Notes: a model not told the origin generated them from the letters alone. A stretch of 62,860 bases of DNA, filler included, from Asterionella formosa (GCA_002256025.1; 13 parts of 13 records of this genome joined end to end with filler, not necessarily neighbours in it); one strand, 5' to 3'. Counted from the first letter of the whole stretch, positions 20,722 through 62,860 are shown. Translations and numbers: made by a program.

Positions 20722-21071
20722 AAATTAGTATGTTTTAAAGCCCATTCATACTCCCCTCTTTCAAGGCAAATATTTCATTGTGCTATTTTTGTTAGCGTAG
20801 GTGAGTCCCCAACCACCTTTCACAAAAGGTGATCATCTTAGCTGCAGCATTCTTACTAGGTACTAGGGGAAACTCTGACTGCCTAGGAAGGCGGCACAAG
20901 CTGCTTGTAGGGGGGCAACCCACTATTTCTTGTACACTATGCATGAACGTGTGGGACGGTAAGGAGTGTGGAAGTCGAATCCAAAAATTGCTTCTCAAAA
21001 AAATTGCGGGAATTGAACCTCACAACCTCAGATCAAAGGCAACGTGCGTGCTTAACCACTAAGCCATTCCC
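20722..21071 (-). mobile_element. tRNA-derived SINE, copy 1
   Basis: Minus-strand head GGGAATGGCTTAGTGGTTAA (A box 21056-21066)...GGTTCAATTCC (B box 21009-21019); perfect 18-bp TSD TTTTCCTGTGCTAAATAA at 20704-20721 and 21072-21089; second copy at ~55835-56202. Confidence 0.85.
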
Positions 21072-21897
21072 TTTTCCTGTGCTAAATAATATAAAGCAAG
21101 ACGAAAATAATACACCAGACCAAGTAAATAGCAGGATAGATACCGCAGTATATGAAAAATATTCATGCTTCATAATATTACACTCTGCGGCGCCAGCAGG
21201 GCAAGCGTTCCCGGGACTAAATCGACTTACCGGTACTCTATTTGCTATTACCCGGCAGACTCTTGGTTAGTACCTGGTACCTGGTACCAGGGTACGTGGT
21301 GGTCTACATATAACTACCGGTACTCTGGATCTTGATTCTACGTATGAGTGATGTAGAGGTACTGGTACCAGGTACCATTGATGTGTCCTTGTGGTTTTTA
21401 TTATGTTAGTCCCGTTTCGTTGCAAGAACGGGATGCATCGTCTCGTATGCATACTATTGTCGTTGAACAATGATATACCGGTACGGTACCTCGTACCCCA
21501 ATGAATACCATAGTGGTAATCTATTATTGATGGTGGCCAACGTATATTTTCGCCCCCGAACAAAAGGTTCGAAGTGAAGCAAAGGGTGGCGTTGACGATA
21601 AGGGGCCGGTTCTGATCACCATCGGTTGAACGCATTGTACTTAAAGCGAAGAATCCCGTCTGCACCCATCAGGCATCCCCTTCTACATCGATCTACACTG
21701 ATATACCTCATCGTTAGTTCAATTACACTTGCCAATCACCATATCAATATTCTGTGAAGAGCAGCGCAAGTAGAAGTTCATGGTGATCCTTCTCTGGTTC
21801 CAGTCGGCTCATTCTGTTTGGCGAGTTGCAACAATCATCTCACAATTCGCAAATCACTGCATACAACAACGCTCAAAACCAATTCATTCATTTCAAC

Positions 21898-24329: not shown

Positions 24330-24639
24330 TGTCCGTTACCTTACCTCCAACCCTTTATCTATTGATTAGCAAATCTCTCATTAGAGCATCTCCACCGCAT
24401 CGACCAAATACCAAAGCCAAACGCAGTTGAAAATATCAAAACACGTCACTTGGTTGAGAATTTTTTTTATCAATAGTCGTAACTTTCATATTTTTTTCCA
24501 CCGCATCGACCAAATCCTAAAATAGTCAAATCTCGCGCCCAAAATTTTAGCAAATAGAAATAGAGTTATATTGTCTTTATATGTGTATCGTTGATAAAGC
24601 AGTACGTAGTACATAGCTATATAAACACAAAATAAAACA

Positions 24640-26116
24640 ATGAGCAATGATACGGACTCATCTGATGATGATCGCCTCTACCATTTCCGCAAGATGTATC
24701 GTCAACAAAGAAGTAAGAATGATGCAAAGAAAATACAAAATAAGGGAGGAGGAGGTTCCAAGGTTGGCAAGGCTACTAACGTGAATCGCTTTTGCGCAGA
24801 GTACGATAAGCTGTCGAAGGACGACTATTTCGGCGAGAATCCAATTTACTCTCCTGCACATTTCAGGAGGCGCTTCCGGATGCGTCGCTCCTTATTTGAA
24901 AAGATTCTTGAAGATTTGGTTGAGGCGAATCCATACTTTGAACAGAAGAAAGATGCTTTGGGTCTGGTCGGTTTTTCACCGCATCAAAAGTTAACCTCAG
25001 CACTTCGAATGTTGGCTTACGGAACTTCGGCAGATCAGCTGGATGACCTCACAAAAATGGCTGAATCGACTACACTCCACAACCTAANNNNNNNNNNNNN
25101 NNNNNNNNNNNNNNNNNNNNNNNNNNNNNNNNNNNNNNNNNNNNNNNNNNNNNNNNNNNNNNNNNNNNNNNNNNNNNNNNNNNNNNNNNNNNNNNNNNNN
25201 NNNNNNNNNNNNNNNNNNNNNNNNNNNNNNNNNNNNNNNNNNNNNNNNNNNNNNNNNNNNNNNNNNNNNNNNNCAAAAGATTTTTGTAACTCAATAATCA
25301 GCAGGTATGGAACAGAATATTTGCGAGCTCCTAATAAGGATGACATGGAAATGGTCTAACGTCTACATGAAGCAAAGGGTTGCTTGGCCGGGACTTCTTG
25401 GTTCATTGGATGTGATGCAGTGGGAATGGAAGAATTTTCCCAAGGCACACAGAGGAGCGTTTCAAGGAAAAGATGGAGTGGCTACTGTTGCTTTGGAAGC
25501 TGCAGTTGATTGTAGACTTTGGTTCTGGCATGCATGGTTTGGAATGCCAGGTGCTAACAATGATCTCAATATTTTGGATCGCTCTCCGTTTTTCCGGGAT
25601 TTGACAGCTGGAAGGACTCCTGCTGTCAACTTCACAATCAACAACAAAGAACACAATCTAGGTTACTATTTGGTTGATGGCATCTATCCAGATTGGCACA
25701 TTTTTGTCAAAACAATTTCGCAATCACAAGGTGCAAAGCGTGCACATTTTTCAATGGTTCAAGAGGCCCAACGCAAGGACATAGAGCGAGCATTTGGTGT
25801 GCTACAAGCAAGGTGGAGGATCCTGGCGCTTCCGTGCAAACTTTGGTCAGTTGGTGCAATGAATCATGTCATCATTGCATGTATCATACTACACAACATG
25901 ATTATAGAAGATGAGTGGGATACAAAAGACACAAACAAATATTTATTTGATAATATTCAGAATGGCTTTTTGGTTGACAATGTGAATCATGACAACAATG
26001 TGCATACTTTTCTAGATTTCAAAGCAATTCGAATGAACTACATGAATGAAGGTGAGCACTATCAATTGCGAAATGATTTGATTGAGCACTTGTGGACTCG
26101 AAATGAGGACAAATAA
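24640..26116 (+). pseudogene. Harbinger transposase (DDE), interrupted
   Basis: FRRRFRMRRSLF, ALRMLAYG, GSLDVMQWEWKN, NNDLNILDRSP, YYLVDGIYP, RKDIERAFGVLQARW, ACIILHNMI; TAA at 25357 and a frameshift near 25380; N gap. Confidence 0.93.
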
Positions 26117-26229
26117 AATATAGTATTTTAGTTATATTAAATTAAACATTCTATTGACTCTTAAAATGTAAATCGCAAACAATGAAATGATACAAGCAGA
26201 GTAATTGATAACCAAATTATTTTAAAACT

Positions 26230-27165
26230 CTAGTTGTTCAGTTCTAGAATCGATTCATCATCATCAGTAGATGCTGATGGAGAAGTTGAAACATCTATTT
26301 CAGCAGAACTGCTAAACTCTACTATACCTTTTTTGGCCTTTTTGGCTGCCGGTTTCCCAATCACAGCATCTATCTCCTCCATTGCTTCTTGTGCCTTCAT
26401 GGAAAACCACCTTTTTGCTTCTGCTGATTCACTATTCATTGAAAATATCTTGAATAGAAACTCATCAAGTTGAGTTTTCACCTTTCTTTCAAGCATCATA
26501 ACATGTTTCTGCTCAATGACAAGCAAGCTGAGCATTTGCAACATGCTTTTCATTCTTGGCGGCTTTTGCCCCCATGGGATGCAACTCATACTTCAAAGCA
26601 TCGAGCTTCAATTTTGAATGATCCCGACCATAACCGCAACCACCCTTCCACTTCGTGGCTTCCTTAAAAAAATGGCAACACTCTTCGAAAATAAATTCTT
26701 TGCCTAGCCTTTTCCCTTTTCCTTCCAATTTAAATAGCTCCATAGCTTCTTCAATGTATTTATCTTCCGTCCATCTCGATTTTGGAACACTTTTTACCAG
26801 TGCAAAGGGCCGCAGAACTTTGTAACGTCTTGATTTATCANNNNNNNNNNNNNNNNNNNNNNNNNNNNNNNNNNNNNNNNNNNNNNNNNNNNNNNNNNNN
26901 NNNNNNNNNNNNNNNNNNNNNNNNNNNNNNNNNNNNNNNNNNNNNNNNNNNNNNNNNNNNNNNNNNNNNNNNNNNNNNNNNNNNNNNNNNNNNNNNNNNN
27001 NNNNNNNNNNNNNNNNNNNNNNNNNNNNNNNNNNNNNNNNNNNNNNNNNNNNNNNNNNNNNNNNNNNNNNNNNNNNNNNNNNNNNNNNNNNNNNNNNNNN
27101 NNNNNNNNNNNNNNNNNNNNNNNNNNNNNNNNNNNNNNNNNNNNNGGTAACACCTGAACCCATAC
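26230..27165 (-). pseudogene. Harbinger accessory ORF (Myb/NAM-associated-like), frameshifted
   Basis: IEEAMELFK...FIFEECCHFFKEATKW...PMGAKAAK, typical of PIF/Pong ORF1; partly in an N gap, start uncertain. Confidence 0.75.
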
Positions 27166-28045
27166 TGACAAGGTTGAATAAATTATGCGTATATTTATGA
27201 GTCGACACCAAGCACACATGCTGATCATGGTTGTATTTTTACTAGCTAGTCTACATGAAAATTGTACCAAAAATGTATTGCAACTATTTATGCACTCATT
27301 AAACCATAAATGTTAGGTTGCCGGCGCAAGCCACAATCTAAACCAATAGAAATGCTTCTTTTATTTGGCTACGGTCAGAGTCTAATCAACCAAATACCTG
27401 ATATTTGGTCGCTCAATAAGGGGGTCATCCTCAAACAAGACCAAAGCATATTTGGTCTTGGTCAATGTGGTGGCTAAAATATTTTTGCTTTTTCGACCAA
27501 CACACATCATGACGTGTTAACGACTCCCAACTGCAATAGGCTTGGTATTTGGTCGATGCAGTGGAGATGCTCTTATTTTAAACGTTGACTCTCAGCTTTT
27601 AGGTGATACCTGGTACTTACCATGTACCGGTACCTGGTACCCTGGTACCGGTACGCACGACAGATCTACACGAGATAACGGTAGTGCATGGTGCATGCCG
27701 ATGCATTGATACCGGGTTTGCAGGCCTACGTCCGATGAGCAGACGGGTTTTCAGAGGAACCAGCCAAAATATATGTGATCTATGATGTGGGCAAGAAAAT
27801 TGGAATATTTATTCGCTCCGGATCGCTCATTGTAAAACTGTGATACCCTGTACCTGGTACCAGAATGTAATACCTGGTACCTGGTACTGGTCGAACTGCT
27901 GGAAACGAAGCAAAACAAGTATTTGCATAGCGGTCATACTACCAGTACTATCCACATCGATCGTCTTCTCACTCGCATATATTTACTATATGGAGCAACA
28001 TCAATAATCATCGCTCCCGTAAAACAACGAGCCAATAAATAGATC

Positions 28046-39760: not shown

Positions 39761-40588
39761 AATTTGCTACAACTTAAGTCTTTTCTTTTTCTGTGTAATT
39801 TTTGGTTTTACCGGTAATTATACATAATTATTCGAAAACTGAAAAAAATGACAGTAACTTGCAGGTACAGTACTGCGGGGGTAAGGTGTACTCCGGTATA
39901 GCCAGGAGTAAAAAATGCGTAGTGATTGTACCAGGTACCACCTGGTACCATCGCTGATGGGCGGTATAGTACAGCTTTGTTGTCCACAAGCAATGCCATC
40001 ATGTCTTTCATTCTTCGTACAAATTCTACGAACTGCCGGAATGCTATGAACGTATAACATGGAAGTCTGTCGGTATGTACAAATAGCAAGCTAAGTCATA
40101 TTTATATATATATATATGTATATATGTTTCATTTTGTAAATTTGTCAACTCGCTCACTCACATCTCCTACGCCAGTGACTGCCGGAATTCATACATTTGG
40201 ACAACAAGACAACTGTAACAGTATATCGGTAGCTAGTATTCTACTCCACTTTCCCTCATTCTCAGCCTCAGCCTCAGCCGCAGCACACCATCAAGGGGGT
40301 ATACAGAATACATTGACAGCAACAACGACTCTTTCTACATTAGCGAAATCGTAGGGGGTCATAGCAACGAAACTATTGTGAAGGACTCAACTCCCATTAT
40401 CACTTGAGTCTTCCCTTCAATATCCGCCCGTCCACGCTTTGGAACTCAAATTAAAGCGGTGTATTGTATTGTTTGCAGTCGTATAGGCGACAGAACCTAA
40501 TCTCTGATCATACCTGGAAGTCCAGGACATTAATTGAACTAGAAATACACATCGAAGACCACAGCGCAAGAAAAGCATTGAGGCAACA

Positions 40589-45931: not shown

Positions 45932-46354
45932 TTTCGATAGAAGTGATGGCTGGCTGTTGGGCAACAGAGTACAGTACAGTAGTTAACGGGAGAACGATGA
46001 TTGTTTAACGTCGAGCGAAGTGTGAGGAGGCAGACTTTCCACTTCACAGTTCGTATGTAATAATGATGCAATGTATTTCTTGCAGACTTTCTTATTTTTT
46101 TAGCTAATAAATAACAGAGGGAATGGAGTAAGTACATCAGCCATATCTAGTCAATAGCCCTTTGATCAATGATTCCTACATATGTACTGTACCATGGCTG
46201 TATCTGATACTAACTAACTACCGGCATGCATAAGTAGTGCTTTCTTATCAAAGCNNNNNNNNNNNNNNNNNNNNNNNNNNNNNNNNNNNNNNNNNNNNTT
46301 AATTAATTAANNNNNNNNNNNNNNNNNNNNNNNNNNNNNNNNNNNNNNNNNNNN

Positions 46355-46700
46355 CCTTGTTGAATTTTCCACCCAACCCATCTTCTATCCATTCTTTTGG
46401 TTTCAATTGTGCAATATCGGAACGATCGTATTTCAATTTTTGTTGTTGTTGCTGCTTTGATGTCGCAGATCCTGCGTTTGATGTTTTGCTCGTCTTGTTG
46501 TTCGCAGATTCCTTCTTTTTCATTTTCTTCGAATCAAACAATGTTTCAATTTCATCAATACCACTCTTGTCCGATGTGCCTATGCATCGAACTACTACCG
46601 GTGCGCCTTCTTTCTCATTCCGCTCATCGTCTGGTAGTGTTCGTTTCGGCATTGGGATTAATTCATGTACTATTGGGACAAGAACATGAATGATTTTCAA
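46355..46700 (-). CDS. Partial hypothetical ORF running into the linker
   Basis: Open K/E-rich frame ending ...KPKEWIEDGLGGKFNK; start and family unclear. Confidence 0.35.
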
Positions 46701-46894
46701 CGGGTCATGTATAACAAATGAGCAGAGTGAGGTCCAACATTATAATGGTTGGTAAGCAAACATGGCGGCCCCTGAGTGGGTGTACTGGTATTGTGCCCTG
46801 CTGCTCTCGGGGGGATTACTATTGGTAATTTGTAGTACTACCGGTAGGGAGAGTGCTCGGAATATTGTATACATAAAACGTTCACGTTAAAATA

Positions 46895-46995
46895 AGGAAA
46901 ATGATATGTAGCTACCAGTATTTCGTCCCCCTAACCCTTATCTTCCGATGGTACCTTGGAAGAGTCTAAGGTTAGGGATAGTTTGACGAAATATC
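46895..46995. mobile_element. MITE family B copy 2 (inverted; TA-site insertion in left TIR)
   Basis: AGGAAAATGATA[TGTAGCTACCAGTA]TTTCGTCCC; CCTTGGAAGAGTCTAA is the reverse complement of 20631-20646. Confidence 0.65.
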
Positions 46996-47235
46996 GAAAT
47001 CATAGTACCCGGTATATAGGGGTACCTGGTACCAGGTAGTCTACCGGGTTTCCCAATTCTAACCACGCCGACTACCAGGTACCGTACTGATGAGTGATGA
47101 CCTTCCTCGCTTGTGCACCCCCACCCCCACTTTGGTCGTGTACAAAACAAAATTTCATAATTGCTGATGATTCCTTCTTGCTTTGTTGCAAAAAGTCGTT
47201 CATTTTCGTACACCCCACCAAGTCTACTTATTATT

Positions 47236-47322
47236 TACCTGTACACCATATGGTATTTCCGAAACCCTATGTATATTTTATCTACCTGTACACCATATGG
47301 TATATCCGAAACCCTATGTATA
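47236..47322. repeat. ~48-bp tandem duplication
   Basis: tacctgtacaccatatggtat(t/a)tccgaaaccctatgtata occurs twice. Confidence 0.9.
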
Positions 47323-49378
47323 GAGATACCGGTAGTTCTGCCATGATAATACCGGTTCCGGAGTCGCACCTATTTACTCTCGTAACGGACAAAATTGAAA
47401 ATCACGATGAATGAAATATGATAAAAGCAACGGCAAAGCCAAGCATCTTCGTTCGGTACAGATGCTTACCAATATGTCTTCGTAGCAATCATTCTCACTG
47501 TCCACAGTAGGTACCTGTGTATGTGCGTTTATGTGGAACCAAAAATATATAAATGACCTCCTTGTGTTGTTTTATCGACTACATATGCCGGTATACTGGT
47601 ACACCTGTAGGTTACAAAATGTACTAGTACCAGTTGAACGATTCTTTGGAGGCGGAGTCCTGCAGGGACAAACCAGCAATCATTATATTCTTTTGTCGAG
47701 TAGAATTTTTATATGCCCTTGTTGTTCATGTGTATGTATGTACTCCGAGTAATGGGCATCTGGTACNNNNNNNNNNNNNNNNNNNNNNNNNNNNNNNNNN
47801 NNNNNNNNNNTTAATTAATTAANNNNNNNNNNNNNNNNNNNNNNNNNNNNNNNNNNNNNNNNNNNNCTGGTATACCGGTAGATGTGTCTATGATGGGCGT
47901 TAGACGTGTGACTCGTTCCCGACTGATACATTCAGGGCGGCTTTCATGCCCTACATATTCGAACACGATCGCATCGGTCGTTCTGCCTGTACATATATTC
48001 ATTGTCATGGTACCTAGGTACCAGTACCGGTAACTGGTATAGACAGGGACTTTCCCAAAACGGGATGAAACAGTAAAAACTATTAGGGTAGAAAATTCAA
48101 CTGCCCATGATTGGAATTTGCACCATAACTACAACCCAATTGCACCACGATACTTAGAGTACGGTACCGGTAGTCTATCGATGCACGTAGTACCAGGACC
48201 GCTTGTTGTTTAATTTTAGAACCATACGTATACTGGTACAAAGTGTCATTGTCGATTTGCCGGGACTGCATTGTCAGCATGCTTGGAATATAACACGGGG
48301 GGGTATCATGCTTGCTATTGTGGAATCCGTCAAATGAGAAAGAAGCCTAAAAAAAAAAGGTACTTGTTTAGTACCAGTTATCGGTATGTTCCTTGGTGCT
48401 GCTGGCTGTGGTGGTCAAACAAGGAGTCATTTTGTGTTCTCTTTGCTTCGATGCATCAGTCTGGGACAATATTGCAGTTATGATATTGGTATGAAAGCAA
48501 AAACACACTCTGTTCGTTTCGTACCGGTAAAAAGATATATAAATAAGAAGGCCATTAGTTAATCAAAGCACTTCACTCCTACAGCTTAATAAGTAATAAG
48601 AATACTGGTACGTAAACTGTAGACTGTCGTAAATTGATCAAAAACGGTAAACCTTAAGGGTCGTTCTTATCATTCCGATGGACTTTAGTTGTTGTACCTG
48701 GTACCAGGTTCCAGTACCTTCGGACATTATGTAGGTTTGGAATCTAATACAGACCAGATACAATCTCCTTTAGAGGATGAATACAAACCAACTTTCCAGC
48801 AGTACCCAGGTACACGTTCAAATAATACGGGGTAGTACGTCATGGCTAATAAGTAATACCGGTGGGTTTGAACCTATAGTTATTGGAATTAGAAAAAGGA
48901 ATCCGTGAAATTACCGGGACCTGGTAACGGTACTCTAAATGAATAAACTGCGTTCACTTGTGCTGCAGTAGTCCAAAAAAATTGCTGCAGAATGCATGTG
49001 GAACCATGTTTGCACCAGAAATCTAGGGGAAATCCCTGTTATAGTTGACTGAAGCGAGGATGGCAACGTTGGAACAAGGCAGTCAATCCAAGGAAAGTAT
49101 AGAAAGTTTAAAAGAAATCCGGAAGATCATCACTACTACTAGATTTCGATTGTCCTCCCCGCTTTCGTTTCGCTTTTTGTTCAGATCGTTTCTTGGCTTG
49201 AGTCTGTTTGGCTACATCCGCAGTTCGTCGCCTATGTTTTTGTTTGTCCTTGGCTCTAAACTCATCAGTCATTCCCGANNNNNNNNNNNNNNNNNNNNNN
49301 NNNNNNNNNNNNNNNNNNNNNNTTAATTAATTAANNNNNNNNNNNNNNNNNNNNNNNNNNNNNNNNNNNNNNNNNNNN

Positions 49379-50784
49379 AATACCCTGAGTTCGTTTGCAC
49401 TTGCAATAAGCATGAGGATTCTGGCACTGATTCCTTTCATGTTGGTCGTGTATGTATCGTGTCCTGAGGCATCGATCATGTGACCTCCTAGAATCAGCCG
49501 GGCCTTTCTCCGTAAATCCTGCTTGACGTCAAATATCATCATCAGTCGAGCATACTGAAATCCATCCCGTTTGAAGGATTTAGATTCGTCCGGTCCAAGA
49601 ATGTTGAAGATTTGCATCTCCATGAGAGCACCAATTTCCTTCTTTCTTGCCTGTTGCCACAGGTCATCACCGTTCAGCTTGGTGTCCAGAGCAATAGCTT
49701 CTCCTACCGTCCTGGGGATTTTCACCCCATATTTGACTTCACATCCACTTGAGGGATGCGGTCTCCTTTTGTTCCTGCCCGGCTTCGAGTTGGTTTTCAC
49801 CCGCCGCCGACTGGAAAAGGCTGAGTTGCTTCGGGTCAGGGTCACCACTGTGGCGCTAGCATCATGTGCATGTCGCCTCCGGATTGAAGTATTTGGTTCT
49901 ATTAGCCTGGTCCTATACAATGAAGTATCTAGGGTCCCTAGCGTTCTCTGAGACCATTCCCTGAGGGTACGGGACATGATCTTTTTCGACCTGAGATACG
50001 TTGCCAGCAAATATGGCGCATCTAGTTTCAGGTCATCAAGATCGCATTGGATCACTTCTCCCGACCGGTACTTTACTCGGAATATAATGGTTTTCACTCC
50101 ATCCCTAGTAGTGGTTTTATGACTAAGAATAGTTTTAATAGTTGAATAGTCTACCCCCTCGGTAGGAGGGGCATATAGTTCTAGGACACGGTTTGCCTCC
50201 GCTTCTGTCATTTCAAGCCATCGCTTGCGAACTTCTGCTTCCTCCGGGCCGAGTTTTCCCACATCAGTACTCTCCGGTATGGTTCCTTCCACGAAGTCCA
50301 CGTTTTTATGCGCCCCGGTAACTGGGGTATGTTTACTTCTGCCCTCACGCGGCCCCGGTGTTATGCGAGTTCCACCGTTGTTCTTGTCAGCTTCGTCAGG
50401 TTGTTTACTCTGTTCCCGTACCCTTTTCCTCCCCCCCCCCTCGAGGTTGGCACTAACAACTTCTGGACCATTCTTCGGCAGTTTGGGAGTTGCGAAGAAG
50501 TAGTCACTTGTGTATTTGACCAAGGTTCTTGGAAACTCCTCGTCTGGATGCCGAGGGAGCACCACGCTTCGGTGGATTTCTCTGGAGATGATGTCTTTTT
50601 CATCTATCCAGATGCGGTAGCACATGTTGTCTCCCTTCGTCCAGGCAATCCCCACAAAGCGTCCACGAAGGTACCTCTTCGCTGGATACTTTCTATTGCT
50701 CATGAGGTACCAGACTGGCTCCCAGAACTTAAATCTGAAAACTGAGATGTCTGGCGTATCCCCATCAAGCGCCTCCCACGGCGT
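49379..50784 (-). mobile_element. Ty1/copia (CoDi-like) pol fragment: integrase C-term, chromo-like segment, start of RT
   Basis: GRFVGIAWTKGD; KYGVKIPRTVGEAIALD...WQQARKKE; MIFDVKQDLRRKARLILGGH; open frame. Confidence 0.92.
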
Positions 50785-51739
50785 NNNNNNNNNNNNNNNN
50801 NNNNNNNNNNNNNNNNNNNNNNNNNNNNTTAATTAATTAANNNNNNNNNNNNNNNNNNNNNNNNNNNNNNNNNNNNNNNNNNNNCAGAGCACGACGCATT
50901 TCATTATTCCCAAGGTTCAACCCTGCCCTGCCAAAAACAGATTGATTGTCTGTAGAAAAAGAACAAGGTTCGCAGAGTATGTTCATGACTGACCACTTTT
51001 CCAATTCCAAACGGCACAAGTAAGAGGAAGAACGAAATGGAGGTAAAGGAACTACAACAGCAATCAAACATAGTTCCGAACACGAGACGAAGAAAACGAG
51101 CGACAGTGCAGAGCAACAACAAAAAGAACAACAGCAATGTGACAAAAGACCTGTTTCCATTTCCCAAAATATTAACTGCTTACCATTATTTCTCGAACTT
51201 TCAGATGCATCCTTTCTGTGATGACAAGCAAGGAGAAACAAAAAATGCCTGCCTGTTTCTTCCAGAGGAACCAGCCCACAACAGAGTCCTTCTTGTTATC
51301 TGGAAGCGAAGAACAAAATTCACAGAGTCAGATGATGGCTGGTTTTTAACAAACAAGACCTTTTTACATTCCATATCAAACAATGCATGTTCAAGTTCAA
51401 ACGCAGGGCGAGGAACACCAAGAAAGAGAAGGGTATACAGCCACAGTAACCACAACGAAAGAACAATAGAATAAGAACAAGAAAAATGACAGCAGAAACA
51501 GCAGGGACAGCGATAACGACAACGAGAACACAACCATGATAGCAGAAAAGACGACAAAAACGACAACAATAACTAACAATAATTTCATTTTACCATGAAT
51601 GTGATATTTTGTTCCTTTCATTCCAGCAGCTGCTTTTCGTTAAGAAAACTGGCACGGACGGTCCTCCTCGCCAACATTCATTTTGTACTACATTTTTGTA
51701 CATTGTACTTCAGAAAAAGCTGGCGCAGTCTATGCTTAG

Positions 51740-52283
51740 TCAGTATTGATCAAATTCGTCATCAGGATGCGTAAAATTTTCGGTGCTTGCTGTGGACTGA
51801 TGACCAGTGCTGTAGCACCTAAATTCCAATTCATTTCTTTCTCAACCAATTTGATGCCGATTTCTATATAATATATTATTTGATGTACCCGAAATCAAAG
51901 GCTTCTTGTCGAATGTCGATATGCTCAGAACGAACGTATATTGTCCAAAGGAGGCATCAGGATGTGTAAATTTTAGGACCACTGCTTTAACAACCAAACT
52001 TCCAATTCATCTTTCTCTACCAATTCATTGTCAATTTCTATCTAGCATAGTATTCGATTTATACGAGATATCAATGCCGATATTTCGAAAGCTCAGAACG
52101 AACATACATTGATCAAATTGCTCATCAAGATGGTGTGTAAATTTTCGGTACTTGTGGCTTGATCATTAGTGCAGTAGCAACAAAAATTCCAAACAACCCT
52201 TCTCAACCAAATTAAGGCAGATTTCTATCTAGCATAGTATTCGATGTACACAAAATCAATGCAGTCGTGTCGAATGTTCATAT
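51740..52283. repeat. Diverged ~180-bp tandem repeat (3 units)
   Basis: attgatcaaatt...catcaggatg.gtaaatttt at ~51745, 51940, 52108. Confidence 0.7.
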
Positions 52284-52383
52284 NNNNNNNNNNNNNNNNN
52301 NNNNNNNNNNNNNNNNNNNNNNNNNNNTTAATTAATTAANNNNNNNNNNNNNNNNNNNNNNNNNNNNNNNNNNNNNNNNNNNN

Positions 52384-52451
52384 ACATAATTATTTGAAAT
52401 ACTTCACATAATTATTTGAAATACTTCACATAATTATTTGAAATACTTCAA
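52384..52451. repeat. 22-bp tandem repeat, 3 copies
   Basis: acataattatttgaaatacttc x3. Confidence 0.95.
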
Positions 52452-52776
52452 TTAATTCTGTAATTCAGTTCACATTGCCTTAAATTTTTGTTCACGTAAT
52501 TCTATAATATGGTTCACGTAATTTATTAATTTTTTTTACGTATTTTATAAGTACTATCAAATAATGTTGATTACTAATTCAACAACCGGTATTTCACATT
52601 ACATGGGAAACAAATCTCGATATGCAATCAAACAAAGAAGTTCTTTCAGAATGGCATCTTCAGTCTTGAGAAGGCAGGCATTATGAGAAGTCTGTAAGGA
52701 CAATGCAAGACAAACAGAAGCGATGCAGAATACAGTTGCTTCCCAATCATCTCATCATGATTGATAAGATGATACT

Positions 52777-53038
52777 GTGATATCATGATAAGGTTACATC
52801 GATGCATACATCACCAAAGTATGATACGTAATATTGAATAAAGTACATCACATAGCTATGATACATTGATCCTAAAATTATGATGATTTTATGAAATATA
52901 TATGATATGATATCATGATAAGGTTACATCGATGCATACATCACCGAAGTATGATACGTAATATTGAATAAAATACATCACATAGCTATGATACATTGAT
53001 CCTAAAATTATGATGATTTTATAAAATGTATATGATAT
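52777..53038. repeat. ~130-bp near-identical tandem duplication
   Basis: tgatatcatgataaggttacatcgatgcatacatcacc...atgatgattttat occurs twice. Confidence 0.95.
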
Positions 53039-53348
53039 AATATTGATCAAAATATGATCATGTAAAAATAGTACAATGACAATAAAATACGATAAAATAT
53101 GTACGCAAGTGTTATCGATACATCACAGAATATAAATCAAGCAATCATAAAGTTTGTTAATTAATGTATATATATATATGTTTGTTGTTTAATATATACA
53201 GTTAAAGTCAACACTTAATATGATAGTATTTTACAGTGGATAGGATCTAAGTATACGGATGCGTTGATATGTACATCACTATAATATGATTTGTGATATG
53301 GATTGATGCATATCACATACCGGTATCCTCAACAACCAGCCATCACGT

Positions 53349-53593
53349 TCATTGTCGTGTCGTCTTTCCTTGTTTTAGATATATATATGCTCAGATCCGT
53401 TCCATTGCAAATCTTCCTTCAATAGGTCAAACTCGTCATCCTTGAGCATTTGCCTTCCAGTGGCATCGTAGGACTGAAGCGCGTCCAGAAAGATACGCTC
53501 CTTTTCGGCTACTGTGAGACGAATGAGTTCCCCACTTTCCGGATCGATGACACAGTATTCCTCGTCAGGACTACTTTCGTTTTTGCTTGATTC
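53349..53593 (-). pseudogene. PGRL1: PGRL1 (PGR5-like 1) gene fragment in a foreign context
   Basis: Manual translation DEEYCVIDPESGELIRLTVAEKERIFLDALQSYDATGRQMLKDDEFDLLKEDLQWNGS, then unrelated residues and a stop; AG acceptor at 53594-53595; absent from the ORF track. Confidence 0.85.
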
Positions 53594-53895
53594 CTATGGG
53601 GAAAGATGAAAGTAAGAATTTTTATTTACTCATAAATAGTTACTAACAAAATGGTTATTTGTTTTTAATCAAGTACAGCCATTTGCAAATAACCGGACGC
53701 TGGTGTCGTTTCTTTTGCTCCATCGACCGAGTCGGACAGAAGTGTCATGTTTTTGACAAGTCTCTTCAATCCAACCACTCCTCATATTCGAAACCNNNNN
53801 NNNNNNNNNNNNNNNNNNNNNNNNNNNNNNNNNNNNNNNTTAATTAATTAANNNNNNNNNNNNNNNNNNNNNNNNNNNNNNNNNNNNNNNNNNNN

Positions 53896-55307
53896 GTGTG
53901 TATGTTGTTATTTTGTTGTTTCAGTTTGGCGACAGTTTGTCCATTTATTTGCTTTATAGCTGGCAACAAAAAGAAATGAATCCATGGAGAACCACTTCTT
54001 TTACTGTTATCCAAAGCTCCTCCATGGACTATATCTCCACGCATGAGGAAGAAGAATTTTATTTCTATGGACAAGCAAATGTATTGCATGTTTCTCATCT
54101 GCGCAATTCTCCCGTACATTTAAACAGTTCCCTACTAAAGAAAATGACATTATCATTCCCCAAGTCATAGGTGTTTCCCTTTTGCATTCTGTTGGTGTAT
54201 AACCTTGGTTCGGTTTCTGAGGTTTTGGGTGACTAGCCATTCTTTCCAGAATTGGTGAGCAACATAGTGGCATTGTGTGGTATCACTCTGTTACTATTGA
54301 CGAAGACATCATTGGAATATGGTAGTGAAAAGCACTTTATCATATGCCAAAATGAATTTAAATTTGGCAGATCCAGCTTCGAATATTTTAAGCAAGCTGT
54401 CAGTATAATGTTTGAAAGGAAACACTCGCATGGCTTTTCATTCCATGGTATTTGCAAGTGCTTTATATGTTGCAGTTGTTTTGAATGTTTGTTTTCACAA
54501 ACGAAAAGGAGCGTTATAGATTTTCTTGGAAGTACAAAATGATTTTGCCACGTGTAAAATTTTTTGTCATTTTCTTCCGTTCCAAAAAACTCATCTTGAA
54601 GGTAAGATAAATTGAGGAAAAACATGCATTCTTGTTCAATTCTGTCGATAACATAAAGGAAATGGTCTGTTCTCAGAACTTTTTTGATTAACCATAATGA
54701 ATCAATGATGAAACATAGGAAATAGTCTATTTCTGCTGCATTTGGTGCTATACTTTTGTTTTTCTGATGTTATATCCTATATGATACCAAAATTTCCTTG
54801 AATTTCCAAAGGATGTTTTGTTAAACAAGCCAGACTGTAGGACCAAATAGAATTTGTTGAGAACAAAATCAAGAACACTGTTATCTAGTCTCTCCTTGCC
54901 TTTGTCATCATGATCAAAGTATCTAACCAGTAAGAGTCGTTCCTTGCTCTTCCGTTGTCTCTTGAACAGACTTGAAATGCGCCGCAGAAACACGTTTTTT
55001 CTGATTGAGCAATCTCTGATCGGTATCCCCTTCACAACCAAGATCGTCCCATTCTTTGTAGCACTCGGAACCTTTGCCATTCCCGATAACAAGTGATATA
55101 TTGCACTATCAATAGTGTGCAAATTTCAAGAGAAATGTGAGTGTAACAGAAGAAAGCAGGAAAGGATAATTGTCTGTCAACTTTATGGTTAGACAGCGAT
55201 GTCATACCAACATACTCAGTAGCTAATAGACATGAGATTGGTAGCGCCAAGCAATAGTTTCAAAGTACCAACATAGTACATAGTAGGTAAAGTTTCACAA
55301 TAGACAC
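53896..55307 (-). pseudogene. Degenerate repeat-borne ORF(s), with PhyH/2OG-Fe(II)-oxygenase-like motifs near the 3' end
   Basis: 54775-55300 homologous to 6230-6770; PQKPNQGY...TPMTWGMIMSF...GNCLNV and FLMRGDIVHGG...WIHF across frameshifts. Confidence 0.5.
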
Positions 55308-55834
55308 NNNNNNNNNNNNNNNNNNNNNNNNNNNNNNNNNNNNNNNNNNNNTTAATTAATTAANNNNNNNNNNNNNNNNNNNNNNNNNNNNNNNNNNNNN
55401 NNNNNNNTTCAATTTTTTGAAAATCAGTGCCCTTCTGCTATGTCACACATTTTGACTCATATCGTTTTATCTTTCAAAACAGGGTTCAGCGTCTTTCGCA
55501 CAATGTGGTGTCATTTCCGGGTTTCGAGCAAAAACTGACAGTTGGTACTACTCATCAATTTTGGGTACCGGTTATTAATTGCTTTGAGCCACCACGTTAT
55601 GATATCATTTTCCAACTAATTAAGATTTATGCTAAAATCAATCCCCTCTTTCGCCCTTTGGCACGATATTAGTTAGTTCATTGAGCTACATGAGAATTAG
55701 ATCATTTTTGTTCTTGAACATTTATCAACTGAAATCTTTCCATTTTAAAAGTGACAAAACCAGTCAAAGTGGCTAAAAGCCATTGATGAAAGCTTTGACA
55801 TGGATGTAGTTATCTTTAGATGATAATGGGTTAT

Positions 55835-56202
55835 ATAGCTCACTCCCACTCCCCTTTTTCAAGGCGAGTATTCATTGTGCTTCCTTCTGACAAGACCTGT
55901 GCTTCCCTAGTTTTGTTAGTACAGTAGTAGGCAATTCCTCAACCACCCACCCTTCACAAAAGATGATCATCTTGGCTGCTGCATAAGGGGAAACTCCAAC
56001 CTCCTGGGAAGGCGACACAAGCTGCATGTAGTGGGGAACCCACTATTTCTTGTACACCAGCAGACCAGGCAAGAAGACTGTGCGGGATTTGAAGGATTGT
56101 GGGAGTCGAACCCAACAATTGCTTCTCAAAAAAATTAAGAGAATTGAACCTCACAACCTCAGACAAAAGGCAACATGCTCAACTAACTACCATAAGCCAT
56201 TC
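55835..56202 (-). mobile_element. tRNA-derived SINE, copy 2 (diverged)
   Basis: Colinear with 20722-21071, e.g. aacccactatttcttgtacac and aattgcttctcaaaaaaatt...gaattgaacctcacaacctcaga. Confidence 0.8.
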
Positions 56203-57810
56203 TTCTGACAGCAATGGTTAGAAAATATAATATTGTTAACCTTTTTTGCAGTTGTTGCTTCGTTTATAGGTGTGTACCGGTATGTTCTTTGATCATGCAC
56301 CCTACTACCCATATGATATTGGGTACTGGTACCGGGACCCTGGTACATAGATTATTCAACATGCAATCAGTATACCGTTACTAGAAGTACCTGGCATGAA
56401 TCCTTCGTACCACATGTACGAAAGGATCGGGATTCTATTTTTACTGGACACATTGTATGAATCGGTACCTGGTACCTGGTACCTGGTAGTCTAATGTTGT
56501 AGAAATGATTGGTACTGTAGGATAGTGCCGGATATATATACAGTAAGTACAGGAAATATAACAAACAAAATGATAAAATTTGATAGGTGGGCGACGAGCC
56601 TCGTAGGCATCTGGTTTGCCAACACGACAACCAGTGGTCCAAGACTCCTGCTGCTCCTTGATGTTCGGCAGGGTTCGCATCCGTTGTACTGTAAACATCA
56701 ACTGATGTCTCGTTGTGAAAACAGGTGAATAATTCATACCGGTATATAAGTATTATTTATGTAATAACAAAGAGGCTTCGCTTTACATACACTAACTAGA
56801 GCGCTGCACACAGAATGGNNNNNNNNNNNNNNNNNNNNNNNNNNNNNNNNNNNNNNNNNNNNTTAATTAATTAANNNNNNNNNNNNNNNNNNNNNNNNNN
56901 NNNNNNNNNNNNNNNNNNCTGGCATCAACAATCAAGTCGGTTTCAATGTCTACCATGGAGGGGCTAACCTGATGGTCTAGATGTCAAAAGGCATCGAAAA
57001 TCATGTTGGGTTTGAAGTGGGTCATGAAATGGGCTAGTAACCTGAAGGTCTAGCTATCAAAAATACATGTGCTGAAATGTTGATTTGGAACTACCAAATT
57101 TGCACTACCATATTAGAGGCACCAATTGGGTTCCAAATTGGAATCATCTTAGTACTTAATTTGGAAGTAGATTTGGGTATCTAATTTACTGTGACATCAC
57201 ATCCTACATCATTATAACATCTATGTAGAAATGTGCACCCTAAAGTTTGAGAGGCTTTGTACCAAGAATGCTGTTCCAAATTGGCATCAAAACTACCAAT
57301 TTGGGAACATTTGCTTTATTGGCTGCCAATTTGGTTTTCATGGCCAACTAACTACACTTCTGTGACATCAAATTTTTTGATGTCAATTCAGCCAGGTTTC
57401 CAAATTGGGTATTTCTTGGCTCCTGTTAACACAGATGCCAGTATGTTACTGTCTTGATTTCTATTCCTTCATCCTTGTTGCTTCAAAAAAAAGGGTACCT
57501 GTAAATACTTCAATGTATATGTCAAAATTTCAACATTCTGATATAGGTTACCAAGTTGGTCAGGCCTATTTATGTATTATATACATACATGAATGAATAC
57601 ATAAAAATAAAATGCATTATACATCTGATCATGAAAAAATCATATGATGATAGCATCTCGACCCGACATCAACTACCGGTAAGGGGGAGTTTGGGTCATT
57701 GATACCAAGTCATGATGCATCCATCACCTTGTTCAAAAAAGCAAAAATATTAGCCACTGATGATGGTCCAAAATATACCAGTATCCCGTTTTGCTCTTTC
57801 GTGAGACAAA

Positions 57811-58329
57811 CTAATAATTCAGGTCCCTCAATGGCAGCTTCATACCAGAAGTCATCCTCCGAGCAATCATTTCAGCTGTCACTGCTTTACCCTTTCGCTC
57901 CCACTCTAGTCGGTTCTCCAAGGCAAATTTCAGACACTCGTCTGAAGAAATTCCAAAGACGCCACATTCCTTGAGTTTTTTGGCCAGTGGGATTATGTAA
58001 AAGTCGAAAAATCCAAGTTCACTCTCGTACCAATATAACCCAGGGTCAGTATCAGCCCTGCCCTCGAGATAGGTATCATACATTTCATTGAAAAGCTTTT
58101 CATTCCATTTCCTAAATATATGCCAATGCTGCATTGTGTGAGCCACATCGGATGCCTGGATTATGTGCTCCACAACGATTGTTGCCTTTGGATTGTCCCT
58201 GCAAATTGTATGATTGGGGTCAGGTTCAACATGAAATGCTTCTGTCCATCTCATCTGCCGGTTCAACTTCAATTCGTTGTCGCATATATCAGTTGCCAAT
58301 ACTGCATTAACCAAGAGCTCTTTGAAACG
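57811..58329 (-). CDS. Cyclic-nucleotide phosphodiesterase catalytic C-terminus (partial)
   Basis: NAVLATDI, EHIIQASDVAHTMQHW, ELGFFDFYIIPLAKKLKECGVFG; 5' part lost at the linker. Confidence 0.92.
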   Translation of the reverse strand, partial: RFKELLVNAVLATDICDNELKLNRQMRWTEAFHVEPDPNHTICRDNPKATIVVEHIIQASDVAHTMQHWHIFRKWNEKLFNEMYDTYLEGRADTDPGLYWYESELGFFDFYIIPLAKKLKECGVFGISSDECLKFALENRLEWERKGKAVTAEMIARRMTSGMKLPLRDLNY

Positions 58330-60278
58330 NNNNNNNNNNNNNNNNNNNNNNNNNNNNNNNNNNNNNNNNNNNNTTAATTAATTAANNNNNNNNNNNNNNN
58401 NNNNNNNNNNNNNNNNNNNNNNNNNNNNNCTGCTGCACTCGCACTGATAGGCTCGCTGCCATCTGCGGGCGGCTACCGGGGGGTCTCTGTTGTGCAACAG
58501 CTTGCTGGGCATGGTATTGGTGGTCGGCCATGCTCAACTTTGGTTATGTCGTCGGACGGCGAATCATTCGACGAAATATAATTACGTGCATGCCGGTAAT
58601 AGAGGACGACTGTGTCTTATTAACAAGGAACGTAGGTATCATCGGTAGTGCTAGTGTATAATCAATCACATATAACGGTATGTATGTAGGGCGGTTACAT
58701 TGTTGTATCATTGTACCCAAGCGTGTCGTACTCAGCCCTACATACATATAGCTGGAACCCTGGTAACCCCAGTAGGTACCAGGTACTGTACTGCAGGATC
58801 TACCAGCAAGGAACGGTACCAAGGTATCATTCATTTTACTACTTGCTATATGTACTGGTATGGTACCTGGTACCCGGTACCAGTACCCAACGATAAGTTC
58901 CCTGGAGTACCAGGTACCAGGTACCTTTTCCCTGTTTACGAGCAGGTACCGATACCCCTGGTGATAGGTACTGGTAGTACCCTGTACCAGTTATCTGGTA
59001 CCTGGTACACAACTTTACCTTTTTCGATGGCGTACAGCACCGTAGCATGTCCTGTATGATCAAGGTACAGTACCTGGTACTCCCTGGTACCTGGTATGAT
59101 TGTTTGCCGCGCTGAAGGCATTATGGCCGTTAATGGTATCCATTCGACTCATGATACCATCGTAGCTTTGGCGAACAATCAAAGTCGGATAACGAGCATA
59201 CCGGACAACCGGTGCTAACTAAGACATCCACGATACGGTATACTGTATCGAACTGGTGGCATAAAATCAATATCTATATATTCAATTATTTAAAATACCA
59301 CATTTTTTGTTGCATGAAAATATATACAACTTTGCTGCCTCGCCAACCCCAACGGACAACGAAGCACCACCACAGCCACATGCACCACCAGCCCAGTCTG
59401 GTGGAGTGGGGTGTACGTATTCCTTGAACATGATACACTCCGGTAGGTAGGTCATACATATCGGGGGCACCAGGTACCTGTTAGACTACCTCGTATTGGT
59501 TCCAGAAACCTGGTAGGAGTACCAAGTACTAGGAAGGTTATTCGGAATACCATCTACTCGGAGTACCCATTTTACATTTACATAAAAATAGAAGTTTAGC
59601 TAAAACAATATGTAGTCGGAGTACAGTAGACTACCTGAGGTACCTGGTAATGTTTCATTTTAAGTATGGTACCTGGTACCTGGTACCAGGTACCTGGAAC
59701 TACCCTGGTACTACCCTGGAAGGTCCAGGTGAGCACATTCTATGCGCACCTTTTCAGTTTCGACACACTCCCAAGAGGGGATCATCTCATGTCTGCCGGA
59801 TGAGATAGGCCACCTTTTGATGAAAACAATATTCCTTGAGNNNNNNNNNNNNNNNNNNNNNNNNNNNNNNNNNNNNNNNNNNNNTTAATTAATTAANNNN
59901 NNNNNNNNNNNNNNNNNNNNNNNNNNNNNNNNNNNNNNNNTGATTTTCCTGCATACACATCATCTTGCAGAATTGTCTAAGTCTTTCTTTAGCATTTGCT
60001 GGATTGTCAGTTCTTAGCAGAAAACCCACTGTTTCTTGGGTTAGTGCATTGGTCCATACACTCTGTCTCAGGATAATGGCCAAGGAAACAAGAAAACAAC
60101 TGCCTTTTGACAGGGATGCAATCAATGAGAACCTAGCTTGGCGCATCCCTCTTGTCCTTAGAATTTGCGTTCAACACAGATGCAGCTTGGCCATCAGAGC
60201 GACAAGGAATCAAATATTTGCAGTTAGTTTTCTTGTTAGTTGGAAGCAATTGTCGATTTGGCTGACCACGTGGAATTG

Positions 60279-60356
60279 ACAGACACAACACACACAACAC
60301 ACACACACACACACACACACAGAGACACAGACAGACAAGACACACAGACACAGACA
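60279..60356. repeat. Imperfect (CA)n microsatellite
   Basis: acacacacacacacacacacac with cag interruptions. Confidence 0.9.
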
Positions 60357-60609
60357 TTTTCTTGGACAATAGCATGGCATACTGCAGGGTTCCATTGGTC
60401 CGTTGGTAGAATATTCTATGTACCAAAATGTGAAGAAAAATTCTACCCCCAGTATTACTGGGTAGAATTTTTGCCTTTCTCTATACCATATTTTCACCAC
60501 GGTCAAGCAAGGGAGGAAAACCGGACAGTATTGACCTGTCCAGAGTAGAACACTACCGGAGCCCTACAGAAAAATACTACTTTGGTAGAATTTCGTCAAA
60601 AATGTATCA

Positions 60610-61222
60610 GTATACCTGTAGTAAGTATCAGGTACCTGGTACCTGGTACCAGGACCAGGTACCGGTATGTATTATGTATGTACATACCGGTACGTACCGG
60701 TAGGCATATTTGAGCACCGTTACCGGTAGTACCTGGTACCTGGTACCTGGTACCTGGTACCTGGTACCGGTAGACTATCTTAGTTAATAACGGTACCTGG
60801 TACCTGGTACCTGGTACCAGTAGTCTACCATGTACCTGGTAAATTGTATGTACATACCGGTAGAGTGAGGGTAGGAGTACTGGTACCAGGTACCAGGTAC
60901 GAGGTACTAGGTACGTAGTGTACCCTTAAGTCTACTGGATGGTACCGGTACTAGGTACCTGGTACCTGTGCAAGTTGCGGTAATTTTGCTGAAACTAAAG
61001 ATTTATCATACCGGTAGCTATGTAGTTTTATCCCAGATGAAATTGTTTGTTTACCGGTACCTGGTAAGCAAAATGACCGCAACTTGCTTGGTATGCATGC
61101 ACTGTAGACAAATACCGGTAAATATGCTTCTTGTTCGCGTCGAGTGTCGAAGGGCCATGTCCCGGTATGTATGATACCAGTACCAGGTACCTGGTACCTG
61201 GTACCAGTAGTCTACCAGGTAC
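60610..61222. repeat. Dense TACCTGG/TACCAGG/TACCGG cluster
   Basis: (TACCTGG)5 at 60730-60764 plus many variants; similar clusters at 58760-59100 and 59640-59720. Confidence 0.9.
60964..61092. mobile_element. MITE family A copy 3, carrying TA-site insertions
   Basis: GCAAGTTGCGGTAATTTTGC...GCAAAATGACCGCAACTTGC inverted ends; TA on both flanks. Confidence 0.7.
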
Positions 61223-61449
61223 TGTGTCGTTCGTATGTATGAGGTGGTAAGAGAGATGATGGTGAAGAAAGGTTTTAGAGTCAGGTTCCACAGTACGTAT
61301 TTTGTACATTGTATACCTAGGGCGGTCGTTTTGAGAAAAGGTTCATGAANNNNNNNNNNNNNNNNNNNNNNNNNNNNNNNNNNNNNNNNNNNNTTAATTA
61401 ATTAANNNNNNNNNNNNNNNNNNNNNNNNNNNNNNNNNNNNNNNNNNNN

Positions 61450-62860
61450 CCATTGTCACATCGAAGTTTCTTGAGGATATAATTAGCACTCTTCAACTTG
61501 ATGACAAGGTTTTCGACAATTTTCGACATTTCACTTTTCTTCTTAACAAAGAAGCTCCATGCTTTGCTGCTATAGTCATCTACAACAAGGACCCAATAAT
61601 TGCTTCCAATGATAGACTTTTTGTAGGGCCCGCTGATGTCAGTACACAAACGCTCACCTGCATGAGTTGCTCTTGTTGTAGAGAACTTTGGTACTGCTTT
61701 GGCCTTAGCTTTGGCAAATGCGCACCCTTCACAAGGTGTGAGACTGCCTGTGACTTCGATATTCAGTGTCTTCAATGTAGCTCGTAGTGCCACCTCACCA
61801 ATGTGTCCGAATTTATCATGTGCCTTGTTGATGTCAATTTTGATTTGCTTAGTAGGTATGATAACTGGTGGTTGCGTGGTAGTTGTACTAGTCATGACGG
61901 TTTCAATAGTACCAAGGTCACGTGTGCCTTCAAAGTAGTACAGGAGCTCTTTGCCTTCTGATTTAAATTCAATGTTCTCGAGTTCATTTGTCTTGCTTAG
62001 ACTGAGTGTCTGTCCTTTGATACTGACTTCGTAGTCTGATTTCTGTACGAAGACTCCGATACTCACAATATTCTTGTGGAAAAGCGGAGTATATAGGACT
62101 TTTTTTAAATGTAGGGTCTTTCCATTGCTTGATGTCACCAAAACGTCACCTCGTTTTGTGCATAGCACTTCCTTTCCATCACCAACAATCACGCGCACCT
62201 TGACTTTTTCAACGTTTATCATACCAAGTTCACTGGATGTGATATGACTGGTAGCTCCAGTGTCGGCCAACCATCGTTCTTCTCCTCCACACGATGCACA
62301 ATATTCAAAATTATTATTATTATTATTATCAGAAATAAATCCGAAACGATGGATCTCTTCCTCTTCTTCTTCAGCTTCGACAGCACAACCGACAAAAAAC
62401 GACGTCTCCTTCTTGTCAGCAGTCTTCTTCTTCTTCTCATCAGGGCAGTCCTTGGCGATGTGACCAGAGAATTTGTTGCAATTGAAACACTTTATGCCTT
62501 TTCCGGTCTTCTCTCCATCCGCTTTTGATCCTTTAGAGCGACAATCCGCCGATTTGTGTCCTTGCTTTCCGCAGTTGCGACAAAGACCTTTGAACTTTCC
62601 TCCTGCAAATAGGGCTATCTCGTTAGTAGATGACTTTTCAGTTTTGAACTTGCGCTTGTAGAAAGCCCGGATTTTGTTCTTCAGTTCTGTTAGAGTGATT
62701 GCCGTCATTCCTTCCACAACTGTGATCACCTCGCTATACTCAGAAGGAAGCTTGTCAATTATGTTGGCAATGACTTCAATGTCTTGTTTCTGAAAAGAGC
62801 TATTGATTTGCGTCATTCTGTTGCGAATCATGTCGAGTTTAATGAACCATTCATCAGGGT
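61450..62860 (-). mobile_element. Ty1/copia gag-protease-integrase fragment
   Basis: Two CCHC knuckles, WLADTGATSH protease, HDKFGH...CEGC, TDISGPY...VVDDYS...LRCDN; open frame. Confidence 0.96.

Follow-up and report, generated by a model that had tools for sequence, protein, structure and literature searches.

The non-coding DNA at positions 60610-61222 is crowded with short words of the form TA-x-TA, in which a few bases stand between two TA dinucleotides: 17 chains of such words occupy 251 of its 613 bases (41%), and a copy of a short inverted-repeat element, here called MITE A, lies in mid-segment. A reading made from the sequence alone took the words to be insertions at TA sites, possibly stacked transposon excision footprints that build a microsatellite. 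We asked whether the words are insertions, how they form arrays, and what process might write them.

The window, which is the whole stretch of DNA analysed (62,860 nucleotides, filler included), consists of a scaffold with N gaps (bases 1-46254) followed by eleven contigs of ~1.41 kb in falling size order (46255-62860), with N runs around a TTAATTAATTAA linker between them. Because the pieces after 46255 are joined by N runs and linker, neighbours there are not adjacent in the genome, and region 60610-61222 sits in a small unplaced contig (59941-61349). The large ORFs gave ordinary eukaryotic proteins (a P-type Ca-ATPase, a GH81 glucanase and NOB1), and the best named relatives of the ATPase were from the raphid pennate diatoms Cylindrotheca and Nitzschia (64-66% identity). 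The public runs that contain the stretch, as far as the run listing tells, are labelled mostly as freshwater or lake metagenome. The source of the DNA is a pennate diatom. The reverse strand at 61451-62858 carries a copia-type polyprotein fragment (Pol_BBD, E=7.5e-15, with a zinc knuckle and a weak gag), which runs off the window end.

Words between TA sites in non-coding DNA

Counts in the window were far beyond expectation, which confirmed the initial observation that TA-x-TA words fill the intergenic DNA. The lists of over-represented k-mers were headed, for k=6-9, by TACCTGGTA, TACCAGGTA, TACCGGTA and their rotations. TACCTGGTA occurred 40 times against a zero-order expectation of 0.24, followed by TACCGGTA (36 against 0.83 expected), TACCAGGTA (16 against 0.24), TACCAGTA (13 against 1.12) and TACTGGTA (11 against 1.11), while GGTACC was found 88 times where 10.2 were expected. 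Expressed as fold enrichment of x within TA-x-TA, the values were 166 for CCTGG, 68 for CCAGG, 43 for CCGG, 12 for CCAG, 10 for CTGG and 76 for CCCTGG (n=4). Base order mattered as well as composition. Among the orderings of {C,C,G,G}, CCGG was present 36 times and the other five not once, and among the 60 orderings of {C,C,G,G,A/T} only CCTGG (40) and CCAGG (16) were seen more than once. The vocabulary proposed by the sequence-only reading thus stood for CCTGG, CCAGG, CCGG, CCAG and CTGG; its remaining members showed no enrichment by count (CAG, 9 against 5.2 expected; CGG, 5 against 3.8; GC, 18 against 18.2; TG, 41 against 24.4). TG, GC and CG are nonetheless genuine insertions in the polarised comparisons described below.

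Copies of TACCWGGTA that had decayed by one mismatch were also common (39 against 12.5 expected). The commonest one-base neighbours of TACCGGTA were its CCAG and CTGG forms, and both CCGG/CTGG and CCGG/CCAG differences were present between the window and a second copy of the region, discussed below. The CCAG and CTGG words may simply be the result of CpG decay of CCGG.

The words formed 86 TA-(x-TA)n chains, 68 of which were isolated single words (31 CCGG, 22 CCWGG and 15 CCAG or CTGG), and they took up 2.6% of the non-coding DNA of the window. None of the 116 words fell in coding DNA (24,443 bases of long ORFs, with 961 of the 3,655 TA sites). Similarly, TA flanked both sides of 56 of the 114 non-coding CCWGG sites and of none of the 32 coding ones. 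A comparison of coding and non-coding k-mers had been suggested as a check; since the words would be frame-breaking insertions, their absence from coding DNA is expected from selection.

Metagenome contigs were scanned with the MITE A arm pattern, which returned at least 119 loci, most of them chance matches. Nine diatom-related loci among the matches listed, chosen by word density and BLAST to the window, were used for comparison, and these nine held 49 words in 10,330 bases. Unrelated metagenome loci contained 8 words in 297,869 bases and viral loci 5 in 200,475 bases, and the words were also rare in the bacterial loci examined. Two scans of viral contigs and one of prokaryote genomes yielded no diatom DNA. 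Several assemblies made independently of one another contain the words, one of them with a marine metagenome contig (L007), and an origin as library adapter or assembly artefact was rejected. That contig carries, at 1566-1662, a MITE A copy 92-94% identical to those of the freshwater contigs L001 and L033, together with three words; the family and the words are thus not limited to one habitat, and the contig suggests that the process extends beyond a single species. As a separate observation, exact (TACCTGG)3 was found in 95 bacterial contigs (L148-L242), several of which share bins (Gemmatimonadaceae, Acidimicrobiia, a Deltaproteobacteria bin and a Chitinophaga bin); these were lone arrays with no dispersed words around them.

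Gains and losses of words between copies

The proposal that the words are extra sequence at a TA drew on three comparisons between repeat copies, all of which proved correct. In the right arm of MITE A, ttTAagc at 1207 corresponds to ttTA-CCGG-TA-CCTGG-TAagc at 61052-61066, a 13-base insertion (CCGG-TA-CCTGG-TA, 61054-61066). An alignment of eight MITE A copies from seven loci, four of them from the metagenome scan (among the matches listed), showed the 13-base block to be absent from seven of the eight, including that of the second copy of the region, and in the copies without it the two arms pair across the insertion point. In the left arm of MITE B, gaTAtttcgtc corresponds to gaTA-TG-TA-GC-TA-CCAG-TA-tttcgtc at 46905-46920, with a 14-base stack (TG-TA-GC-TA-CCAG-TA, 46907-46920) at the TA of GATA|TTTCGTC. 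This arm thus reads GATA|TGTAGCTACCAGTA|TTTCGTC, whereas the right arm of the same element has GATATTTCGTC, as does the copy at 20625-20710; the gap was placed by eye, as MAFFT put it wrongly. The third case is the 5' LTR of a small LTR element, TA-CGG-TA-gcag at 17798-17804, against TAgcag in the 3' LTR. Here CGGTA (17800-17804) is confined to the 5' LTR and missing both from the 3' LTR and from three metagenome LTR copies (L033, L062 and L087), which read GGATTTATATAGCAG. The 5' LTR reads GGATTGACATACGGTAGCAG, which amounts to CGGTA plus three changed bases just upstream.

The additional copies polarise all three cases, and they support the view that the words are derived insertions at TA and not ancestral sequence deleted elsewhere. 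Empty sites with a single TA were found as gtttgttTAagc (in the second copy of the region and six MITE A copies), gcTAgtttt, gtacaTAcg, gaTAtttcgtc and tataTAgcag. Two dispersed repeat pairs of the window, 54775-55307 with 6214-6769 (81% identity) and 55943-56202 with 20809-21069 (77% identity), differed by indels that were mostly not TA words.

The second copy of the region is a metagenome contig of 705 nt (L099), collinear with window 60596-61349. Between L099 and window 60889-61349, only 6 substitutions were found in 430 aligned pairs, yet there were 12 gaps, and overall no fewer than 12 gains or losses of TA-x units separate the two copies in nearly identical unique DNA. Seven gaps in unique context span 4 bases or more; when the gaps were rotated, the microhomology at the junction included TA in every one of the seven and was exactly TA in three. 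When the two sequences were split at every TA, their length differences were almost all whole TA-x units. A control that ran this token alignment over all 16 dinucleotides did not discriminate between them, since charging each gapped token rewards long tokens and GT performs just as TA does within GGTA, and we rely on the rotation of the gaps.

On the window side, the gains were CCTGTA (60615-60620; L099 has atcagtaTAgtaag), CCGGTA (60687-60692; L099 has gtacaTAcg), TGTA at a TA inside MITE A (61021-61024; L099 has gcTAgtttt) and the 13-base block at 61054-61066. On the L099 side, CCTGGTA was gained at the TA of gtgTAccc (window 60921-60922), and an extra CTGGTA is stacked beside the TACCGGTA word at 61009-61016, which lies inside MITE A and is not in the family consensus. 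None of these gains is a tandem copy of its neighbour. A further TACCGGTA word, at 61113-61120, occupies the first TA of gacaaaTAaaTAtgc in the window and the second in L099 (gacaaaTACCGGTAaaTAtgc against gacaaaTAaaTACCGGTAtgc). Two independent hits are the best reading here, although a pair of 4-base indels would fit too. Several alignments are possible for the ~116-nt difference between window 60773-60888 and L099, and our conclusions make no use of it.

The gain of CCTGTA directly follows the 10-bp target duplication of a MULE-like element (window 59941-60614; L033 1340-1560; L099 60-75), whose long inverted ends are rich in GGTAGAAT and ATTCTACC motifs. The right end and the duplication, TATCAGTATA (60605-60614), are present in the window and the left junction in L033. 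In L099 the site is empty and TATCAGTATA is single, a presence/absence polymorphism.

At a word-poor locus represented by three metagenome contigs (L033, L062 and L087; 1,079 nt, 98% identity), the only indels were a 12-base tandem duplication and an AC indel, neither of which is a word. In these comparisons, turnover of words was confined to the word-dense region. Judged from these alignments, the insertion process is real, recent and concentrated where words already exist, and this conclusion holds for L099 as an allele and as a very recent paralogue alike.

The turnover between copies also bears on the idea that selection maintains TACC(W)GGTA in promoters as a palindromic binding site. The palindromic form would suit such a site, as would the confinement of the words to non-coding DNA, often no more than a few hundred bases ahead of an ORF (such as the words at 27607-27947 before 28043 and at 39809-39937 before 40538). 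A selected motif is hard to reconcile with the 12 or more gains and losses of words that separate two near-identical copies of the locus, with words inserted into MITE inverted-repeat arms and an LTR, with variable array length, or with the abundance of copies decayed by one mismatch. We give this explanation very little credence.

Arrays, stacks and slippage

The region includes three forward-strand arrays. The first, TA-(CCTGG-TA)5-CCGG-TA at 60730-60772, contains (TACCTGG)5 at 60730-60766, where L099 has four units ending in CCAG. The second is (TACCTGG)3-TACCAGTA at 60794-60822, and the third is a mixed array at 61175-61209 (CCAG-CCAGG-CCTGG-CCTGG-CCAG), the L099 version of which starts with CCGG and is 7 bases shorter. 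Together with an inverted array at 60878-60899, the second array brackets a unit of ~105 nt. The bracketed unit (60793-60907) recurs at 21270-21377 and, in part, at 3747-3785, with GTAGGAGTACTGGTACCAGGTACC in common. The arrays of this unit either travel inside a small element or have converged, and local duplication of this kind contributes to array growth.

The claim that stacked scars build the microsatellite was borne out in part and contradicted in part. Mixed stacks occur in several places: TG-GC-CCAG in MITE B, TCA-CTGG-CCGG and CCGG-CCTGG in MITE A, and CCGG-GC-G-CCTGG after the MITE ending at 1238. These fit repeated hits at regenerated TA sites. Uniform arrays point elsewhere. Neighbouring 5-base units were the same in 15 cases and different in 3 (p=0.0075), where independent scars would predict about equal numbers, and the uniform (TACCTGG)n arrays look as if they had grown by slippage or unequal exchange. 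The neighbour identity and the variation in unit number suggest a microsatellite that was seeded by insertions and grew mostly by slippage or unequal exchange.

Could slippage alone, acting on an ordinary heptanucleotide microsatellite (GGTACCW)n, account for the words, with the isolated ones as decayed arrays? Tandem Repeats Finder reported many period-7 arrays, their unit number varies between the two locus copies (5 against 4, for example), their neighbouring units are mostly identical (15:3), and lone (TACCTGG)3 arrays occur in the 95 bacterial contigs too. In these respects, the arrays behave as slippage products do. However, identical head-to-tail units and unit-number polymorphism were properties of the arrays only, and the 68 single-word chains are not tandem; 31 of them are the 8-base TACCGGTA, which is no heptamer unit. 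New words arose at non-repeated TA sites, several as non-tandem insertions at a plain TA inside repeat arms, and the identical word stands at neighbouring TAs in the two copies of one locus. Slippage as the sole cause is largely refuted by the non-tandem insertions, and we regard it as highly improbable.

A candidate source element and a possible mechanism

MITE A is a short non-coding element with terminal inverted repeats and multiple dispersed copies (~100-130 nt, no ORF, arms of 21-38 nt with 74-95% complementarity). Its arm pattern matched seven times in the window against 0.41 expected, and the aligned copies come from seven loci. The copy in the region (60965-61091, forward strand) has the ends CCTGTGCAAGTTGCGG...CCGCAACTTGCTTGG and TA on both sides (60963-60964 and 61092-61093). 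Two further forward-strand copies, at 950-1043 and 1135-1238, are without insertions, and the latter ends in CTGG followed by TA-CCGG-TA-GC-TA-G-TA-CCTGG-TA. Solo degenerate arms lie at 39840-39865 (reverse strand) and 882-905; one is TA-flanked, gtactgTA|CCTGCAAGTTACTG, and the other ends in CTTGCCAG, directly followed by TACCTGGTA.

The ends of MITE A read 5'-CCWGCAAGTTGCGG, and nearly all arms from independent loci end in CC(A/T)G, then CAAGTTGCGG. TA stands exactly beside 8 of the 15 placeable arms, with two more ambiguous, against ~8% by chance. Other flanks (GA, CA, TG, TC and CG) are mostly one change from TA. Stowaway-like MITEs are non-autonomous derivatives of Tc1/mariner elements, and MITE A resembles them in its small size, inverted-repeat arms, absence of an ORF and TA beside 8 of its 15 placeable arms. 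It is unlike them in that TA is intact on both sides at only one of the six loci with both ends placed, and its CCWGCAAGTTGCGG ends differ from the plant Stowaway consensus. We know of no partner transposase for MITE A, and a full-text search of a limited library returned no paper on mariner-like elements in diatoms. Since its copies are 75-92% alike, the family looks old, whereas the turnover of words is recent.

We searched the window for other elements that might write the words. A search for CCWG...CWGG ends gave four pairings, of which two were MITE A arm pairs and two lay in ORF-coding stretches and were judged to be chance, leaving MITE A as the only element in the window with such ends; a looser search for TA-flanked inverted repeats was swamped by the word arrays themselves. 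Comparison of 141 ORFs of the window (8+15+118) with Pfam revealed no transposase of a TA-targeting kind, be it Tc1/mariner, pogo or another. The sole transposase in the window belongs to a PIF/Harbinger element (24381-27578; ORF 25298-26116, Plant_tran, E=7.6e-72). This element was rejected as a source of the words, as it has a TTA duplication on both sides, GAGCATCTCC ends and arms that begin GAGCATCTCCAC. The search proposed by the sequence-only reading, for a TA-flanked inverted-repeat element and a DD34-39D/E transposase with matching ends, gave a candidate element and, in this window, no such transposase.

The terminal bases of MITE A could supply the main words. The ends CCAG...CTGG predict CC+GG, CCA+GG, CC+TGG, CCAG and CTGG, which is the enriched vocabulary, CCCTGG included. 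All of CCGG, CCWGG, CCAG and CTGG can be derived from CCWG...CWGG; CCWGG needs five bases, and such ends do not yield TG or GC. Full joins of the two ends should read TACCATGGTA and TACCAGCTGGTA, neither of which occurs in the window. In addition, 5 of 7 MITE A ends have a word no more than 21 nt away, compared with 7.0% of random non-coding points. Ends of unrelated elements (the Harbinger element, the small LTR element, the MULE-like element and MITE B) were also near words (4 of 9 within 30 nt; null 8.6%), so the proximity of words to MITE A is not specific.

Could the relationship run the other way, with words serving as preferred landing sites and MITE A-like elements entering the centre or a TA of an existing palindrome? 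Six MITE A arms are preceded by GGTA, which gives GGTACC over the junction, and the ends of several element types adjoin words. On the other hand, CC is kept at nearly all MITE A arms, even where there is no TA flank, which indicates that CC travels with the element, and a target preference makes no words at a plain TA such as gtttgttTAagc. We consider this reading very unlikely.

Scars of the Tc1/mariner kind offer the nearest known parallel to the words. As described in one report (PMC6943129), such scars consist of the element's first or last 2-4 bases between TAs, and those of Sleeping Beauty are TACAGTA or TACTGTA. The words agree with them in having a duplicated TA at a site that was formerly a single TA, a few constant inner bases interpretable as the terminal bases of a TA-flanked inverted-repeat element, a central A/T alternative of the kind left by a mismatched overhang pair, and shorter variants. 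They differ in that the inner part is of 4-5 bases, against 2-4 in the published scars, and in that the words top the k-mer list, stack and seed arrays, with no transposase found in the window.

The non-coding DNA of this diatom is subject to a recurrent and ongoing mutation in which 4-7 bases, mostly CCGG+TA or CC(A/T)GG+TA, are put into a TA to give TA-x-TA. As its most probable source we propose a Tc1/mariner-type cut-and-paste element that targets TA and has the ends 5'-CCWG...CWGG-3'; the element would duplicate TA on entry and, on excision, leave its own first and last few bases between two TAs. If two bases were kept per end, TA-CC-GG-TA would result. If two 3' overhangs CCAG paired one base out of register, with C:G and G:C pairs around an A:A mismatch, the product would be TA-CC(A/T)GG-TA, the same geometry that gives TAC(A/T)GTA in Sleeping Beauty. 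The CCAG and CTGG words would be remnants of a single end, if they are not decayed CCGG. Each scar would offer two new TAs to further hits, building mixed stacks, and wherever two equal units came to lie side by side, slippage or unequal exchange could extend them into uniform (TACCTGG)n.

The constant inserted text, whatever the flanks, and the invariable TA junction are the signature of a TA-duplicating cut-and-paste element with terminal-base scars. For the transposon origin, the TA-flanked inverted-repeat element with fitting ends speaks in favour; against it stand the lack of a matching transposase in the window and of an allele series of empty TA, element and word, the one comparison of this kind, L099 (one sister copy, 705 nt) against the window, having given empty and word states only. 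We put the probability that the words are excision scars of a Tc1/mariner-type, TA-targeting element at roughly 0.5.

A serious rival is templated copying during repair, in which a microhomology-primed polymerase would anneal at TA, copy bases from a nearby array and rejoin at TA, with no transposon involved. Microhomology-mediated end joining produces templated short insertions that are bounded by microhomology and clustered near similar sequence, and the words share both traits. All of the turnover seen was in the word-dense region, with none at the word-poor locus, and the block at 61054-61066 equals the first units of the array ~120 nt downstream, as read in L099. Words near the ends of several unrelated element types look as if they marked break repair, and the failure to find a transposase among the 141 ORFs of the window agrees with a process that needs none. 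However, the microhomology here is always TA, and the insertions are drawn from a fixed and very small set of words. Copying explains neither the origin of the first words nor the narrowness of the vocabulary, nor why TA should be used and not AC, CC, GG or GT, when 56 of 114 non-coding CCWGG sites are flanked by TA left and right. It also meets TG, GC and CG insertions with no nearby array as template, and isolated words far from arrays (68 of 86 chains are single). We therefore hold it to be doubtful, serious as it is.

Unlikely too, and a shade more so, is that the words are not conventional transposon scars and that a TA-specific, self-propagating insertion process writes the fixed palindrome TACC(W)GGTA as a genome-wide mutator. 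Such a process could be a diatom-specific enzyme or repair pathway, or an ultra-short mobile unit, and both the hypervariable arrays and the words found close to mobile elements of all kinds would be its products.

Excision scars, MITEs and slippage have each been described before. A full-text search of a limited library turned up neither an account of these words in diatoms nor one of repeats built from footprints, and we did not find in print a genome in which TA-bounded words dominate the intergenic k-mers, outpace point substitutions and seed heptamer repeats. If no transposon lies behind the words, a new sequence-specific insertion process needs explaining. If they are excision scars, as we propose, then footprints would be the most over-represented intergenic words of this diatom, amounting to ~2.6% of the non-coding DNA in the window, and would visibly give rise to new microsatellites and to rapid differences among locus copies. 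The birth of microsatellites from mobile-element activity would then be directly testable in culturable algae, and the words would provide very fast markers for diatom populations.
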